NCBI GenBank assembly: GCA_937975135.1
Contig: CALJVA010000048.1
Location: forward strand, 12,208 to 76,207
Length of the DNA stretch: 64,000 bases
From: an uncultured Thermoactinomycetaceae bacterium
GTDB taxonomy: Bacteria > Bacillota > Bacilli > Thermoactinomycetales > CALJVA01
Direction: 5' to 3'
Positions 1,548 through 7,100 of the stretch are shown one piece after another (positions within the stretch are counted from its first letter, which is position 1; each line of letters begins with the position of its first letter). A program made the translations under genes and the position numbers. A model generated the notes under the pieces. It saw only the letters and a list, made by a program, of their open reading frames with translations. It was not told the DNA's origin and did not search any database.

Positions 1548-1561
1548 CGAATAAATGTTCG
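1548..1561 (+). promoter_or_regulatory. LexA (Cheo/SOS) box upstream of recA
   Basis: CGAATAAATGTTCG matches the Gram-positive consensus CGAAC-N4-GTTCG (one mismatch). It lies 10 nt upstream of the predicted -35. Confidence 0.75.
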
Positions 1562-1570
1562 CAATTCCTC

Positions 1571-1599
1571 TTGGCACTGACTAAAAAACGAGGTATGAT
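1571..1599 (+). promoter_or_regulatory. Putative sigma-A promoter of recA
   Basis: TTGGCA, 17-nt spacer, TATGAT; about 30 nt upstream of the recA RBS GAGGAG. Confidence 0.6.
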
Positions 1600-1628: not shown

Positions 1629-2666
1629 ATGTCAGATCGTAGTCAGGCATTGGAAATGGCTCTGCGGCAGATTGAAAAGCAGTTTGGTAAAGGGTCGATT
1701 ATGAAGTTGGGCGAATCAGGCCCGATGCAAGTGGAAACAATTTCCTCAGGAGCTTTAGCCTTGGATATTGCCTTGGGTATCGGAGGATTCCCCCGTGGGC
1801 GAATTATTGAAGTATATGGACCCGAGTCTTCTGGAAAGACAACGGTTGCTTTACATGCTATTGCTGAGGCCCAAAAAGTAGGTGGACAGGCTGCTTTTAT
1901 CGATGCAGAGCATGCTCTTGATCCGATTTATGCTCAAAAATTAGGGGTAAATATTGATGAATTGCTCTTGTCCCAGCCAGATACTGGAGAGCAAGCGCTG
2001 GAAATTGCTGAAGCTTTGGTACGTAGCGGAGCCATTGACATTATTGTGATTGACTCTGTGGCTGCTTTGGTGCCAAAAGCAGAGATTGAAGGCGAAATGG
2101 GAGATTCTCATGTAGGTCTTCAAGCCAGACTGATGTCCCAGGCACTCCGCAAGTTATCCGGTGCAATCAGCAAGTCCCGGACGATTGCCATCTTCATTAA
2201 CCAAATTCGAGAGAAAGTAGGAGTAATGTTTGGTAGCCCCGAGACAACCCCAGGTGGACGAGCCCTTAAGTTTTATTCCAGTGTTCGTCTGGAAGTACGC
2301 CGGGCAGAAACCATCAAACAAGGGACAGAAATGATTGGAAACCGGACTCGCATCAAAGTGGTGAAAAACAAGGTTGCTCCACCTTTTAAGCAAGCTGATG
2401 TAGATATCATGTATGGTGAAGGAATCTCCAAAGAGGGAAGTATTTTGGATATTGGAAGTGACTTAGATATTATTACAAAGAGTGGAGCTTGGTATTCATT
2501 TGAAGGGGAACGTTTAGGGCAAGGGCGTGAGAATGCCAAACAGTTTTTAAGAGAAAATGAAAAAATATGCAAGCAAATTGAAGCCCGGATTCGCGCACAC
2601 TACCAGCTTCCAGTGAACATGGTGGAAGAAGAGTCAACAGAGGAGAAAGCGACTGAAGAAGGTTAA
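1629..2666 (+). CDS. recA: Recombinase RecA
   Basis: Full-length RecA with Walker [10 protein letters not shown] and FIDAEHALD. Confidence 0.99.
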
Positions 2667-2694: not shown

Positions 2695-3348
2695 ATGAAA
2701 AGTGTGATTACGCGAATCGAACGGCAGGAAGGTAGAAAGGGACGTTATCACCTTTATATTCAGGGTTTTGATTCCCCTTTGTCGATCCATGAAGATGTCC
2801 TTGTTCGTTTAAGATTATCCAAGGGAATGGAGATCAACCTAGCTGAAATTGAAGAGATTCTTGATCTTGAGGAACAGACCAAGGTAAAACAGGCTGCTTT
2901 ACGTTATTTAAGTTACCGGCCGCGAACAGAACAGGAACTGGATCGTTATCTGGAGCAAGCAGGGTTTGAAAAGCATCATCGAGAAGTGGTGATTGCAGAA
3001 TTAAGTAATTTGGGATATATCGACGATCGCCAATTTGCTGCACAGTGGATAAAGAGTCGGCGTGAGATCAAAGGGTATGGAAATTTGCGTCTGCGACAGG
3101 AGCTGCAACAGAAAGGAATCGCCTCTGAAATCATCGAAGAGCTCCTGCAAGAAAACGATGAAGAGAAAGAGTTTCAGCTTGCACTTTCAGTGGCTGAAAG
3201 TCGTTATAAAAGGATACAAGATCTTCCTTGGAAAACCATTGAAAGGCGGCTGGGCCACTATCTGGCCCGCCGCGGATTTCCCCATGGACTGATTTTTATG
3301 GTATTAGAAAGGTTACGGACACGGCGAGATGAAGAGCGGGAGGAATAG
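2695..3348 (+). CDS. recX: Recombination regulator RecX
   Basis: Three-repeat helical RecX-like sequence (ALRYLSYRPRTEQEL, GYIDDRQFA, YGNLRLRQELQQKGI). Starts 28 nt after recA. Confidence 0.85.
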   Translation: MKSVITRIERQEGRKGRYHLYIQGFDSPLSIHEDVLVRLRLSKGMEINLAEIEEILDLEEQTKVKQAALRYLSYRPRTEQELDRYLEQAGFEKHHREVVIAELSNLGYIDDRQFAAQWIKSRREIKGYGNLRLRQELQQKGIASEIIEELLQENDEEKEFQLALSVAESRYKRIQDLPWKTIERRLGHYLARRGFPHGLIFMVLERLRTRRDEEREE

Positions 3349-3351
3349 GGA

Positions 3352-4347
3352 ATGCGCCTGTTATACTTGACGGACACACATATTCGTGGAACTTCTCCTC
3401 GTAGCCGGAATGATGATTTTCCTTCCACAATGAAAAAGAAGCTGGAAGAAGTGATTCAAATCGTGCACCGAGAGCAGATTGATGCTGTTCTTCATGGTGG
3501 CGACCTGTTTGATCGCCCTGATTTGTCTCCGGCGATTGTTGGTCAGTTTGCCGCTTTTTTTCGTCGCTTTCAAGTTCCAGTATATGCAATCGCTGGAAAT
3601 CACGATTTGTTTGGCCATAATCCGGATACTGTTGGGCGGACAATGCTTGGATTATTGGATGCTCTAGGGGTACTTCGCCTTATACGACCAGGTGAAGTTA
3701 TTTTTATGGAAAAGGAAGGGCGAAAGGTTCAGCTCTCAGGCCAACCCTTTCATTATGATTTAGATAAGCGGGCGCCGGAGTTGGACTATTCTGTTCCAGG
3801 ACGTAATGGGGCTGATGTTTGTATTCACATGGTACATGGAATGCTGGTAGCTCGTCCATTGCCGGAAGGAGTAGCCCATACGTTGATTGATCACGTTTGG
3901 CAGGCTGATTTTGACCTTTTGTTAACTGGTCATTATCATGCTGGTTTTCCTCTTCAGCGACGGGAAGGTAGAGTGATTGTGAATCCTGGTGCGTTGGCTC
4001 GGGTGAATAACCATGTGTCGGAAGTGCAGCGGATGCCTCAAGTAGCCATCATTACATTGGAGGAAGAGATTGATGTACGTTTACTTCCACTTACTTCGGC
4101 AGTAAATGGTTCCGAAGTACTGGACCGTAGCTATCTCCAGAAAAAATCTTATCAAGAAGAGAAAATGAACGACTTTTTACAAGTAGTTCGTGCTGCGGGA
4201 AAAGTAGAATCGATTTCCATTGCGGAGATTATTGATCATATCGCAAAGATGCATAAAGTTGAAGATTCGGTTCGGAAGGAAGCACTACTCCGTATCGCTG
4301 CTGTGGAGGAACAGTTGGCAACGAGAGGAGGGACGGGTAGCAGGTGA
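3352..4347 (+). CDS. Mre11/SbcD-family metallophosphoesterase (DNA repair exonuclease-like)
   Basis: Calcineurin-like motifs LTDTH, GGDLFD, AGNHD and TGHYH. Starts 3 nt after recX; GTGA overlap with the next gene. Confidence 0.85.
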   Translation: MRLLYLTDTHIRGTSPRSRNDDFPSTMKKKLEEVIQIVHREQIDAVLHGGDLFDRPDLSPAIVGQFAAFFRRFQVPVYAIAGNHDLFGHNPDTVGRTMLGLLDALGVLRLIRPGEVIFMEKEGRKVQLSGQPFHYDLDKRAPELDYSVPGRNGADVCIHMVHGMLVARPLPEGVAHTLIDHVWQADFDLLLTGHYHAGFPLQRREGRVIVNPGALARVNNHVSEVQRMPQVAIITLEEEIDVRLLPLTSAVNGSEVLDRSYLQKKSYQEEKMNDFLQVVRAAGKVESISIAEIIDHIAKMHKVEDSVRKEALLRIAAVEEQLATRGGTGSR

Positions 4348-5822
4348 AAAGAGTGGCAAGTTTATTACTGGAAAATTTTCAGTCCCATCGATATACAGAG
4401 ATCTCCTTTGTATCTGGGATGAATGTGTTTGTTGGTCCATCAGACAGTGGAAAAAGTGCTATCCTTCGTGCTTTGAGGTGGGTATTATTTAATCAACCTC
4501 GGGGAAGTGAGTATATTCGGGTAGGGGCGGATCACTGTCGTGTAACACTTACTATGAATGATGGGGTAAAGATTATCCGTGAGCGTTCATCCTCCACAAA
4601 TCGATATATTTTAATCAATCCCGAAGGAGAAAAACAAATTTTTGAGGGATTTGGGAGCGGTGTACCACAGGAAATATTGGATTCTCATGGGATGCATCCA
4701 TTGAAGTTGGATCAGGATTGGGAATTACCGATCCAATTTGGTTCACAGCTGGAGGCTCCTTTTTTATTATCTGAAACGGGCTCTATAAAGGCGAAAACAA
4801 TTGGTCGGGTAAGTGGTGCCCATTTGATTGATTTAGCTCTTAACCAGGCGGTATCCGATCGTCGGGCATTAACAGCCAAAATAAAAAATGCGGAGGAACA
4901 AGCTCAGCAGCTGCAGCAAGATTTGGAGTCATATAAAGAACTGGATCAGATGAAGGAAAAATTGGAGCGGGCTCACCAGCTTTTTCAAGGGGCGGAGGAT
5001 CTTCTGCAGCAGATGAATCGTCTCAAAAAATTGCGTGAAGAATTACTCCTCTGTCGCCAGCGACAAGGGGAAGTAAAAAGCAAACTGGAACAGCTGAGTT
5101 CGTTGCCTTTAGTGGAAGGACTTGTTTCCAATCTAGAATATTTGGAGTTGCGGAGTTCCTTATTAAATGCGAAACGGTTAAGCTGGTTACATAATCAGAG
5201 GGAGCGAAGGATTTGTCTCGAAGTCATCGAGCGGACGGCTCACTTACCTAAAGTAGCCCATTTAATTAGTCAGGCTGAAGAAGCTAAAAAAGAGTTGTCA
5301 GAATGGAGTGTGCTTCATAAACGATTGCAACACCTTCGCAGGGAGATCCGTACCTTGCAACACTGGTTGGAAAAAACAGAGCAGATGCCAGCAGCAGGCT
5401 TTTATCTGGAAGAAATCGTTCAATTGCAAACTCGTCTTCAGAAAATAAAGCCCCAAGCTGTTAGATGGCAAAGGATTGTGAAAGAAAAAGAGGTTTGTGA
5501 AGAACTGTTAAATCGTACTCAGCGGGTTCCGAAGGCATTCTCCCAGGTATCCGCTTTGGAAATGGCGATGGACCGGTATAAGGAGCTGGTTCGTTATCAG
5601 GAGCAACTTGCAGATAAACGAAGGCGCATGCAGATTGGAACCGCCTTTTTGCAGCAGAAGGAGCGGGAGATTCGTGAGCAGATTCATAAACTAACCTGCT
5701 TATTTGAAGAAGTGGGTCAATGTCCTACTTGTGGTTCAGTGATTGATCAGGAGATATTGAAGCGGATTACAAAGGAGTATCAAGGAGGAGAAGATGATGC
5801 AGCAGCGGGAAGAGAAAATTAA
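4344..5822 (+). CDS. Rad50/SbcC-like ATPase, N-terminal lobe + ascending coiled coil + zinc hook
   Basis: LENFQSH...GPSDSGKSAILRAL (Walker A), Q-loop-like QFGSQLEAPFLL, about 300 aa of coiled coil, and CPTCG about 25 aa before the stop. Confidence 0.85.
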   Translation: MKRVASLLLENFQSHRYTEISFVSGMNVFVGPSDSGKSAILRALRWVLFNQPRGSEYIRVGADHCRVTLTMNDGVKIIRERSSSTNRYILINPEGEKQIFEGFGSGVPQEILDSHGMHPLKLDQDWELPIQFGSQLEAPFLLSETGSIKAKTIGRVSGAHLIDLALNQAVSDRRALTAKIKNAEEQAQQLQQDLESYKELDQMKEKLERAHQLFQGAEDLLQQMNRLKKLREELLLCRQRQGEVKSKLEQLSSLPLVEGLVSNLEYLELRSSLLNAKRLSWLHNQRERRICLEVIERTAHLPKVAHLISQAEEAKKELSEWSVLHKRLQHLRREIRTLQHWLEKTEQMPAAGFYLEEIVQLQTRLQKIKPQAVRWQRIVKEKEVCEELLNRTQRVPKAFSQVSALEMAMDRYKELVRYQEQLADKRRRMQIGTAFLQQKEREIREQIHKLTCLFEEVGQCPTCGSVIDQEILKRITKEYQGGEDDAAAGREN

Positions 5823-6051
5823 GATTTTGAAACAGGCATTGGAGAAGGCAAAAGATGAGCGTTATAAAGCGGAAGCTAAGATGGAGCAGCTCCAGTGGGA
5901 GGAAAAGAAAATTCTTGAGGAGTTGCGGGAACAAAATGTGGATCCAGAACGATTGGATGAGGAGATTGCTGCACTGGAACGGGAAATTGATGAAAAAATC
6001 AAAGAAGCTTGGGCGTTATTGCCTGAGGAGTTGTTAAAGAAGAATGAGTGA
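5794..6051 (+). CDS. 85-aa coiled-coil protein (middle piece of the split Rad50/SbcC-like arm)
   Basis: RBS AAGGAGGAG upstream of ATGATG. E/K/L-rich heptad sequence. Overlaps the upstream ORF by 29 nt and the downstream ORF by 8 nt. Confidence 0.6.
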   Translation: MMQQREEKIKILKQALEKAKDERYKAEAKMEQLQWEEKKILEELREQNVDPERLDEEIAALEREIDEKIKEAWALLPEELLKKNE

Positions 6052-6718
6052 AGCGAGTTTACAGGAATTATCTAAGGCATTGCGTCAAGCAAATTCAGAA
6101 TGGGCCAAACGGGATGGGCAGCGAGAAAAACTGCTTGAGCAGTTAAAAGTGGTGGAAGAAAAGCTTGTGGCTTTACGGAAGGAACAGGAGTTGCTTGAAA
6201 AAGTAGCAGCTCTAATGCGAGAATCTGCAGAGTATGCACGGGAGCAAGCGCGAGATCAGATGGAAAACCTGGTTACAAATGCGCTCCAATATGTATTTGG
6301 GCCAGAGTTTCAATTTTCCATTCAATTTTCAGAGCATGGTGGAAAACCGGTCGCGGAGTTTTATGTTATTACAGAATGGGAAGGGAAGAAGATTAAAACA
6401 CGACCGCAAGAGGCCCGAGGCGGAGGAGTTGTTGATATCATTTCCCTTGCCTTGCGGATTGGTCTGATGGAAAGTTTTCGTCCTCGACCGGAAGGACCTC
6501 TTATTTTAGACGAGCCAGGAAAGCATGTGAGTGCTGAGTATATTCATGCAATGCTTGAGTTTTTGAAGCAGACGGGAGAAATGTTTGGTCGTCAGATTAT
6601 TTTGGTTACCCATAATCCCCACCTAACGGATGCAGCAGATCAGGCCTGGCAAGTGCAGTATAAAAGCGGGGAAACGGAGGTTGTTCCAATCACACTTCTT
6701 GACAGCGGGCATGGCTAA
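6044..6718 (+). CDS. Rad50/SbcC-like ATPase, descending coiled coil + C-terminal lobe
   Basis: Signature-like ARGGGVVDIISLAL, Walker B PLILDEPG and H-loop ILVTHN. Confidence 0.8.
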   Translation: MSEASLQELSKALRQANSEWAKRDGQREKLLEQLKVVEEKLVALRKEQELLEKVAALMRESAEYAREQARDQMENLVTNALQYVFGPEFQFSIQFSEHGGKPVAEFYVITEWEGKKIKTRPQEARGGGVVDIISLALRIGLMESFRPRPEGPLILDEPGKHVSAEYIHAMLEFLKQTGEMFGRQIILVTHNPHLTDAADQAWQVQYKSGETEVVPITLLDSGHG

Positions 6719-6802
6719 ATAATACAATTAATGTGTGTCTCTTTCTATTATCTCCTCCTCGATTTATCGGGGCGGACTTACCACTCGAATGAAGACTTAA
6801 AT

Positions 6803-6860
6803 AGGCGCTGGGGGCAGGGGCTGACGCTAAAGAGAAGAGCATGCCTCCTGCGCCTTTTTT
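6803..6860 (+). terminator. Candidate terminator after the recA-to-SbcC-like gene string
   Basis: AGGCGCTGGGGG pairs with CCTCCTGCGCCT (includes G-U pairs, large loop), followed by TTTTTT. Confidence 0.45.
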
Positions 6861-7042
6861 CACAAGTGATCCATAGAGGCGTTGTGAATTTCAAAAGCTT
6901 GGGCCGGCGATCCCTTGGTATATTTTTACAACGTTTCTAAAGCAGTGTGAAAATGGAAGGGTATGGGTCATTTGGTCCTATAATGAATCGATGAAAAAAA
7001 GACCTTTTGTATAAGGAAGTGACATCCATCTGAACGAAAGAA

Positions 7043-7067
7043 AGACCGAATGAGTCGGTCTTGTTTT
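7043..7067 (+). terminator. Hairpin + T-tract 34 nt upstream of the rny start (leader or orphan terminator)
   Basis: AGACCGA-atgag-TCGGTCT followed by TGTTTT. A TATAAT box lies at 6979-6984 upstream. Confidence 0.55.
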
Positions 7068-7100
7068 ATAAATAAAGGCGAAGGAGGTGGATAATGATCG

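Follow-up and report, generated by a model that had tools for sequence, protein, structure and literature searches.

The locus and its four proteins

We analysed a stretch of 64,000 nt from contig CALJVA010000048.1, belonging to an uncultured Thermoactinomycetaceae bacterium; this whole stretch is called the window, and all positions are given in its coordinates. The feature under study, at 3352-6718, consisted of four tightly packed open reading frames (ORFs) on the forward strand, encoding in this order a Mre11/SbcD-type metallophosphoesterase (MPE) and three proteins, N, M, and C, which carry the parts of a Rad50/SbcC-like ATPase (Table 1). Consecutive genes overlapped by 4 nt (MPE/N), 29 nt (N/M, 5794-5822), and 8 nt (M/C, 6044-6051). 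An earlier note on this DNA had read the cluster as a Mre11/SbcD-like nuclease plus a Rad50/SbcC-like ATPase broken into three polypeptides, and the four ORFs were found with every coordinate and motif that it had listed. The match of these pieces to Mre11/Rad50 features is far beyond chance.

MPE matched Pfam Metallophos (5e-14) and NCBIfam Mre11_Sulfo (1.4e-10, residues 3-210). Mre11/SbcD models covered its first 210-250 residues only, with scores far below their cut-offs, and no Mre11 capping domain was detected; the Mre11 models aligned to residues 1-~250 only. All five phosphoesterase motifs (DxH, GDxxD, GNHD/E, H, and GHxH) were present; those already recognized in 3352-4347 turned out to be at least 97% conserved among 76 orthologues (D8/H10, G50-D51 with D54, G82-N83-H84-D85, H162, and G193-H194-x-H196). 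MPE adjoined N in all chromosomal loci examined and was fused to it in several phages.

N matched AAA_23 (6e-16) and the Rad50 model PRK03918 (1e-18), in both cases via its first ~90 residues. The Walker A motif and the Q-loop-like segment ascribed to 4344-5822 were confirmed by invariant positions from G31 to K37 and by the Q-loop residue Q135, invariant in 119 sequences. A CPTCG motif had also been located near the stop codon of N, and it was indeed there (residues 460-464), although 28 residues, and not about 25, precede the stop. When the PDB was searched with a profile of the 119 sequences, Rad50 of P. furiosus ranked first (1e-11), and residues 413-480 matched the Rad50 zinc-hook structures 1l8d and 6zff (~5e-4). 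The CPxC motif of N thus reads as a Rad50-type zinc hook, with zinc binding predicted. The AlphaFold2 model of N, with a predicted local distance difference test (pLDDT) value of 82, presented a β-rich lobe followed by helices 159-195, 200-298, 301-344, 354-392, and 395-457, the hook, and a helix at 469-479; Foldseek placed the Rad50 N-terminal chains 9a9j_A and 1f2u_A first.

C matched Rad50_Sulf (4e-9, residues 7-213), and a PDB search with a 20-sequence C profile gave P. furiosus Rad50 heads as the best hits (2e-8). The Walker B (LILDEPG) and H-loop motifs proposed for 6044-6718 were upheld, residues L155, D156, E157, P158, and G159 of the Walker B/D-loop and H190 being invariant. The signature-like motif was only partly as described: a conserved loop occurs at that place, but it is the non-canonical, invariant R125-G126-G127-G128, which aligned with L-S-G-G of P. 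furiosus Rad50 and has Gly at the Ser position. The AlphaFold model of C (pLDDT 87) showed an 83-residue helix (3-85) and then an α/β lobe, for which Foldseek ranked the Rad50 C-terminal chains 1ii8_B, 9a9j_B, and 3qkr_B first. Both lobes are, as judged by profiles and predicted folds, closest to the two halves of archaeal Rad50.

The third ATPase gene, M, started at an ATGATG located 5 nt after AAGGAGGAG, in agreement with the 85-aa ORF described before, with its own ribosome-binding site and its overlap with N. In an alignment that included phage members, P51 and P77 of M were invariant and G48, A19, A26, E27, E31, and I58 nearly so; the general pattern was a ~45-residue helix, a G-V-x-P cap, a ~24-residue helix, and an L-P end. 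The stretch at 5770-5822, where N ends and M begins, encodes an N tail of the form GG...AAAGRE[DN] that is conserved in Thermoactinomycetaceae and is the other-frame reading of the Shine-Dalgarno sequence and first codons of M. Bacillaceae N proteins end 7-16 residues past CPxC. This tail is probably not functional, because the overlapping M imposes its conservation and Bacillaceae N stops soon after the hook.

Table 1. Positions of the four genes, of their main motifs, and of the neighbouring features in the window.
Feature	Position	Strand	Remarks
MPE, Mre11/SbcD-type metallophosphoesterase	3352..4347	+	331 aa; nuclease core, then ~85-aa C-terminal region
N piece	4344..5822	+	492 aa; Rad50 N-lobe 1-~158; helical arm 159-457; CPTC 460-463; post-hook helix 469-479
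Walker A GPSDSGKS, N residues 31-38	4434..4457	+	G31, S33, D34, G36, K37 invariant (119 sequences)
Five tandem 47-residue repeats, N residues 205-439	4956..5660	+	most of the arm; profile self-alignment
CPTC, predicted zinc-hook motif, N residues 460-463	5721..5732	+	C460, P461, C463 invariant (119 sequences)
M piece	5794..6051	+	85 aa; helix ~3-46; G/N-V-x-P turn 47-51; helix 52-74; L-P77 end
C piece	6044..6718	+	224 aa; long helix 3-85, then Rad50 C-lobe
C motifs RGGG 125-128, Walker B/D-loop LILDEPGKH 153-161, H-loop H190		+	conserved in alignments
LexA (Cheo) box-like site CGAATAAATGTTCG	1548..1561	+	upstream of recA; 9 of 10 positions of CGAAC-N4-GTTCG
Sigma-70-like promoter TTGGCA-17-TATGAT	1571..1599	+	consensus scan, 10 of 12 matches
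recA	1629..2666	+	ORF, 345 aa
recX	2695..3348	+	ORF, 217 aa; stop 3 nt before MPE gene
Terminator-like hairpin with T6 run	6799..6862	+	RNAfold -28.1 kcal/mol for 6796-6865, then TTTTTT

Occurrence and genomic context of the three-part ATPase

Homology searches retrieved 967 proteins with C (216-241 aa among the 120 listed) and 544 with N (among the 120 listed, 119 of 434-549 aa and one of 388 aa). With M alone only five proteins were found through a word index, and M was studied instead via fetched loci. A HMMER search with C against 1.84 billion cluster representatives (E ≤ 1e-10) gave at least 1570 clusters, and the best 150 of them were nearly all stand-alone proteins of 205-260 aa. A scan with one genome per species found 310 relatives, from which 80 loci were fetched; these came from Thermoactinomycetaceae, alkaliphilic Bacillaceae (Halalkalibacterium halodurans, Alkalihalophilus, Shouchella, and others), and Tissierellia/Clostridia.

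N, M, and C were separate ORFs in all 78 loci holding the three of them, across many genera, and no N-M or M-C fusion was found among these loci. The comparison of orthologous loci, fused versus split, that had been proposed as a check was thus run, and it bore out the view that the split is genuine and not a sequencing error, with junctions specific to each lineage. The order recA-(recX)-MPE-N-M-C-rny-ymdB-spoVS was essentially invariant in the fetched loci, and synteny with recA and rny was seen in at least 75 species. At the N/M junction, most Thermoactinomycetaceae had an overlap of 26 or 35 nt. Bacillaceae had a gap of 12-31 nt or an overlap of 4-14 nt, and N and M were there frequently in one frame, divided by a single stop. 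The spacing between M and C ranged from -17 to +4 nt, with two outliers of +25 and -56 nt, and a Shine-Dalgarno sequence occurred at most M and C starts. A pattern that varies in this way among lineages cannot be produced by a shared sequencing error or by a single recoding signal. In every complete chromosomal locus M was an ORF of 80-92 aa, except for one of 100 aa (locus L027), and its protein identities of 41-63% to the window protein indicated purifying selection. The split is genuine and ancient; it recurs in at least 78 other bacterial species and is the rule in a large family, not a peculiarity of the source genome.

One in-frame N-M fusion suggested by tblastn (L064) was rejected as an artefact, for the alignment had crossed a stop: the sequence ends CPTCGQEICKHAKE*, and the GTG start of M follows. 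RecA of the window was 80-89% identical to that of Bacillaceae and Thermoactinomycetaceae loci and 71-72% identical to that of two Clostridia/Tissierellia loci. Some side features were also observed around these loci. In the Thermoactinomycetaceae metagenome-assembled genome (MAG) CRAIB_MAG35 (L053, 2488-4419), recA residues 1-95 and 96-343 lie ~900 nt apart, an arrangement suggestive of an insertion in recA (intein, intron, or homing endonuclease). In Calditerricola satsumensis (L083, 8268-9479), an opposite-strand gene for an rve-family transposase stands between C and rny.

The same division was seen in viruses. A tblastn search of C against 50,697 phage records matched ten, which represent eight distinct phages, including three of Bacillus. 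Layouts were obtained by profile searches of the fetched phage loci, in which M was matched with E = 1e-11 to 1e-23. In vB_BboS-125 the order was N (471 aa), an AP2-domain gene, M (78 aa), C (211 aa), a small ORF, and an unannotated MPE (326 aa); in prophage phBC6A51 it was BC1852 (N), BC1853, BC1854 (M), BC1855 (C), BC1856, and BC1857 (MPE); and in jumbo phage 0305phi8-36 it was gp8 (an MPE-N fusion of 769 aa), gp7 (M), gp6, and gp5 (C). All ten IMG/VR contigs were split between N and C; four carried an MPE-N fusion and the remaining ones had the order N-M-C-MPE or N-MPE-...-C. Among the six contigs lacking a match to the M profile, five had an 84-106-aa ORF with the helix-turn-helix pattern upstream of C, directly or one ORF away. 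PHROGs holds one family for each piece (phrog_16465, 8e-75; phrog_18563 for M, 5.6e-5; and phrog_15167, 8e-63). The phage copies sit in replication/recombination modules, beside helicase, primase, or DNA polymerase genes.

Other genes were found at the junctions in several phages. The AP2-domain gene of vB_BboS-125 (L086, 4170-4742) lies exactly between N and M, a position taken in phBC6A51 by BC1853 (a 100-aa ORF), and gp6 of 0305phi8-36 is placed between M and C. Proteins with an AP2 domain are frequently associated with homing endonucleases. The gene may have come apart through mobile genes that entered at the junctions; at the least, the junctions are seen to tolerate such insertions. In one IMG/VR contig (L093, 3198-6704) a DnaE-type gene of ~3.5 kb (PHP plus polymerase III alpha, 1168 aa) stands between N and M-C; M remains with C although N has been moved away.

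Rare arm-less relatives joined the N-head and the C-head in a single chain (P0302, 368 aa; P0368, 357 aa; and P0378, 325 aa), and P0373 (693 aa) was a fusion of MPE, N-head, and C-head. The fusions of MPE with N support the view that MPE and the N-lobe associate physically, and those of the N-head with the C-head support the same for the N- and C-lobes. Relatives of C were also present on large, mostly non-mobilizable plasmids and megaplasmids (28-40% identity over ~70% of the length of C), some annotated as ParA, in Paenibacillus, Bacillus velezensis, Alkaliphilus, Clostridium baratii, Geobacillus, and other hosts.

Upstream of the cluster lie recA and recX, and RecX Pfam domains were present in the recX orthologues of the Thermoactinomycetaceae loci and of Calditerricola. 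An exact search of the window for GAAC-N4-GTTC gave no match because the box upstream of recA has one mismatch (GAAT); it was found by scoring. Boxes of this Cheo type reaching 9 of 10 positions occurred upstream of recA in 69 of 75 orthologous loci, compared with 1.75% of random 250-nt windows. The promoter at 1571-1599 probably drives recA and would also drive the genes behind it. The terminator scan predicted none between recA and C, before position 6799; it missed the hairpin at 6799-6862, the loop of which is long, and this hairpin is the probable end of the recA-to-C transcription unit. As the intervals from recX to C are gaps of at most 3 nt or overlaps and no terminator is predicted before 6799, we infer that recA-recX-MPE-N-M-C would be co-transcribed in this lineage as one damage-inducible transcript. 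About 380 nt after C comes rny, followed by ymdB and spoVS. The rny leader (6699-7100) contains a near-consensus promoter, TTGACA-18-TACAAT, whose position (6699-6728) overlaps the end of C. It also has a symmetric hairpin (7042-7062) immediately before the rny start.

Arm architecture, assembly, and competing explanations

Self-alignment of the N profile over residues 196-460 displayed ungapped off-diagonals at shifts of exactly 47, 94, and 141 residues (E = 1.5e-24, 5e-17, and 4e-9, respectively), and residues 205-439 therefore form five tandem repeats of 47 residues. Three of the four internal repeat boundaries (298/299, 345/346, and 392/393) coincided with helix breaks in the AlphaFold model, the helix running unbroken through 251/252. 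Neither M nor the N-terminal helix of C was homologous to the repeats (profile match probabilities of 2.5 and 14%, respectively), which indicates that the repeat signal is not an effect of composition. Repeat number varied with respect to the window: there was one repeat fewer in Calditerricola (N of 449 aa), two fewer in a MAG labelled Deltaproteobacteria (388 aa), and one more in Tumebacillus (534 aa) and in L053 (530 aa), with M and C held constant at 80-92 and 223-229 aa in these loci.

These data bear on the proposal, made in the earlier note, that the descending arm of a Rad50-like coiled coil is cut twice, M and the start of C being two fragments of one strand. The possible return strand would draw ~11 residues from the part of N beyond the hook, ~70 from M, and no more than 83 from the C helix. 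This makes at most ~165 aa, roughly half of the ~300-residue ascending arm, and changes of -2 to +1 in repeat number take place without any change in the length of M or C. A short return strand and uncompensated repeat changes do not fit the geometry of a twice-cut descending arm, so this part of the proposal is not supported in the form given. M is besides a conserved helix-GVxP-helix-LP protein with invariant prolines that is not homologous to the arm repeats; the idea that it is a detached repeat was discarded on the match probability given above. Kinship of M with designer pentatricopeptide repeats was likewise rejected: the PDB profile matches emerged only when summed, through a local 'ELGVxPE' helix-cap motif, and each single match was insignificant. 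The other element of that proposal, a functional ATPase head that has to assemble from separate chains, is supported by the location of the two lobes on separate ORFs in all 78 complete loci.

Taking these results together, we consider it probable that MPE, N, M, and C form one Mre11-Rad50-type nuclease for the processing of DNA ends and hairpins, whose ATPase naturally consists of three polypeptides. N and C would join non-covalently into one ATP-binding cassette (ABC) head resembling the two-chain Rad50 head constructs of crystallography, the 83-residue helix of C pairing with the head-proximal part of the N arm; that a split head can assemble is indicated by the PDB matches, which are themselves two-chain heads. 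Two such heads would engage upon ATP binding, with a single zinc ion, bound by four cysteines, linking the tips of the two N arms, and MPE would dock on the N-lobe, to which it is fused in some phages. M would be an obligatory structural subunit bound to the arm, placed either close under the hook or next to the C helix at the base. Residue-for-residue pairing with a return strand would be lacking for most of the repeat arm, which would therefore pair with a second N arm or fold on itself. The complex may be induced by DNA damage and trim blocked or hairpin-capped ends for RecA-dependent repair, and the phage versions would serve phage recombination and replication.

Several points weigh against this explanation. 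The assembly of the pieces is deduced from their sequences and from models of the monomers, and it is gene order that makes N, M, and C colinear with one Rad50 chain, no N-M or M-C fusion having been found. The pairing of the arm and the position of M are guesses: with a predicted template modelling (pTM) score of 0.40, the N monomer model is informative for secondary structure only, and mean-field direct coupling analysis of 625 pooled pairs of adjacent repeats, aimed at an antiparallel packing of neighbours, gave in its gap-free run helical i+4 and i+7 signals but no clear diagonal or antidiagonal band (z ≤ 3). Replacement of the signature Ser in RGGG means that ATP-driven engagement of the heads may differ from that of Rad50. 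In the MAG labelled Deltaproteobacteria, with Bacillota-like neighbours (L081, 5009-7459), MPE, N (388 aa), and M were present and C was not found at the locus; a MiaB-like radical-SAM gene follows M there. SOS control is read from the operon layout: a scan for Cheo boxes upstream of MPE found none, recA and MPE are 80-500 nt apart in Bacillaceae, and the Tumebacillus cluster is not near recA, so regulation may differ in other lineages.

It is possible, although rather doubtful, that the system is a Rad50-type machine lacking the customary intramolecular antiparallel coiled coil. Modular 47-residue repeats in one chain would then make up the arm, which would align in parallel with that of a second N or fold on itself and be closed by the zinc hook, with the C-lobe as a separate subunit held by its own helix and M as a small clamp or adaptor.

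Explanations that deny a genuine three-chain ATPase were weighed against the survey. Frameshifts that the earlier note saw elsewhere in the assembly, together with damaged genes in some relatives (N truncated in L041, L051, and L062, from draft genomes or a MAG; sbcD, rny, or ymdB frameshifted or broken in L033, L036, and L062), could point to breaks caused by sequencing or assembly errors, or to a decaying pseudogene of a single-chain sbcC. This explanation deserves practically no credence and is refuted by the comparative data, namely the three ORFs in 78 of 78 complete loci with frames, overlaps, and gaps that differ by lineage, the own start of each ORF, usually with a Shine-Dalgarno sequence, the purifying selection on M, the predominance of stand-alone C relatives among the best clusters, and the equal division in phages. 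The damaged genes themselves, in drafts of JCM strains (L033, L036, L041, and L051) and in the MAG L062, look like sequencing errors and not like pseudogenisation. Recoding, through a frameshift at the N/M overlap or read-through of a stop, would yield one long Rad50-like chain; the +1-frame overlap of 26-35 nt between M and N in Thermoactinomycetaceae would be compatible with it, as would the many Bacillaceae in which M continues in the frame of N after one stop codon and a few further codons. It is nevertheless very improbable. The junctions, which include overlaps, gaps of 4-31 nt, and every combination of frames, are more diverse than one signal could account for; M and C each begin at a start codon of their own, usually with a Shine-Dalgarno sequence; and in phages unrelated genes interrupt the N/M or the M/C junction, one of them, of ~3.5 kb, parting N from M-C.

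Other explanations accept the three chains and assign them a different role. A recombination module derived from a phage and captured by the chromosome, with no role in host repair or with another role in spore-forming Bacillota, agrees with the phage homologues of the same tripartite layout and their dedicated PHROG families, with neighbours (rny, ymdB, and spoVS) that are not repair genes, and with the location of the Tumebacillus cluster elsewhere. We regard it as unlikely: the chromosomal order MPE-N-M-C is constant, unlike the phage orders, no flanking phage genes were present in the window region or the loci examined, all catalytic motifs are strongly conserved, and a role in the damage response is favoured by the close linkage to recA-recX downstream of a LexA box. 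More improbable still would be an anti-phage defence system of the SMC-like (structural maintenance of chromosomes)/ABC ATPase kind (Lamassu LmuB-like, Gabija, or MADS mad3-like) situated near recA by chance. Relatives do occur on phages and large plasmids, and PADLOC reported partial matches to LmuB (5.6e-13 for N and 7e-8 for C) and mad3 (1.2e-12 for C), and weaker ones to GajA and AriA. These matches are weak, however, and no better than those to Rad50; PADLOC gave no match to LmuA or LmuC, the partner is a Mre11-type nuclease with intact motifs, and the phage copies lie in replication/recombination modules. The position between recA/recX and rny, fixed in at least 75 species of several families, fits a vertically inherited housekeeping locus, and together with the lack of defence partners it argues for housekeeping repair and against a defence island.

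Relation to known systems

Rad50/SbcC and SMC proteins are taken to need one out-and-back chain that couples the head to the hook or hinge. The simplest form of this view is contradicted here, where the N chain ends right after the hook, the return path can come only partly from two other proteins, and the length of the arm shifts by whole 47-residue modules with no change in the partners. If the proposed assembly is true, an ATPase of ~800 aa in three pieces would be a small, dissectable system for finding which parts of the arm transmit the ATP signal. If the arm has no antiparallel coil, it would constitute a minimal and differently wired link between an ABC head and a distant dimerisation point, common to phages and to the recA operon of many Bacillota. 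Hundreds of genes that now carry the annotation 'AAA family ATPase', 'ATP-binding protein', or 'hypothetical protein' would also receive a function through this family. With it, the recA operon of Thermoactinomycetaceae and, in alkaliphilic Bacillaceae, the vicinity of recA gain a probable end-processing nuclease induced by DNA damage. As far as the sequences tell, the three-piece Rad50-like ATPase is a real and overlooked variant of the DNA-break-processing machine.

In full-text searches of the literature, no account of a naturally split Rad50/SbcC came up. Yoshida et al. (2011) listed gp8 of 0305phi8-36 as a Mre11/Rad50 fusion in which one segment of the P-loop NTPase 'was not observed' and which lacked the capping and helix-loop-helix (HLH) part (PMC3175470). 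Of the fusions in that paper, gp8 is a member of the present family and Mimivirus R555 is a complete single chain. Our comparison shows that the segment missing from gp8 corresponds to the separate gene gp5 (C), with gp7 as M, separate genes to which it was left unconnected in PMC3175470; this explains why a phage Mre11/Rad50 fusion was reported without an ATPase segment. Iyer et al. (2021) placed SbcC/SbcD among the core recombination proteins of jumbo phages, and the split is unmentioned there (PMC7824862).

Some N homologues match Pfam AAA_27, which we take to be the YhaN-type N-terminal domain; N of the window does so only at E = 0.0036. YhaN is one chain of ~960 aa, unlike the three-piece ATPase reported here. 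According to Krishnamurthy et al., SbcE/SbcF (YhaN/YhaO) of B. subtilis is a second non-canonical pair of SMC-like ATPase and phosphoesterase of Bacillota, acting in double-strand-break repair (PMC2811018). Lamassu LmuB and MADS mad3 possess distantly related ABC/SMC-like heads, and the arm-less P0302 and P0368 are near mad3 in length, whereas their partners and genomic settings are different and the matches to them are weak and incomplete; with weak LmuB matches only, no LmuA or LmuC, and a locus fixed between recA and rny, the system does not belong to Lamassu. RloC, a Rad50-like zinc-hook tRNase (PMC2610378), shares the ABC ATPase, the coiled-coil insert, and a CxxC hook outside canonical Rad50, but consists of one chain, includes an anticodon-nuclease domain, and has no Mre11 partner.

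The closest counterparts are Rad50/SbcC and Mre11/SbcD of P. furiosus and E. coli (SbcCD). Shared with them are a lobe with Walker A and Q-loop, a lobe with Walker B, D-loop, and H-loop, a long helical arm ending in a CxxC hook, and an adjacent Mre11-type phosphoesterase. In contrast, here there are three genes, an arm with five 47-residue repeats, a return strand that is far too short, an additional conserved 85-aa protein M, a signature of RGGG instead of SGGE/Q, and a short MPE (331 aa) with no capping domain detected. The single chain with an intramolecular antiparallel arm of equal length that characterizes Rad50/SbcC was replaced by three polypeptides in 78 of 78 loci, and scores stayed below the curated NCBIfam cut-offs (66.6 bits vs. 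700 for PRK03918 and 34.9 vs. 1000 for Rad50_Sulf). The system probably works like Mre11-Rad50 and yet lacks two features of Rad50/SbcC membership, the single chain with matched arms and scores at the curated cut-offs. With the two-chain Rad50 constructs of crystallography (1f2t, 1f2u, 1ii8, and 3qkr) it shares N- and C-lobes that are separate chains forming a head; those constructs are engineered and devoid of arm and hook, whereas the present split is natural and N keeps the whole arm and the hook.

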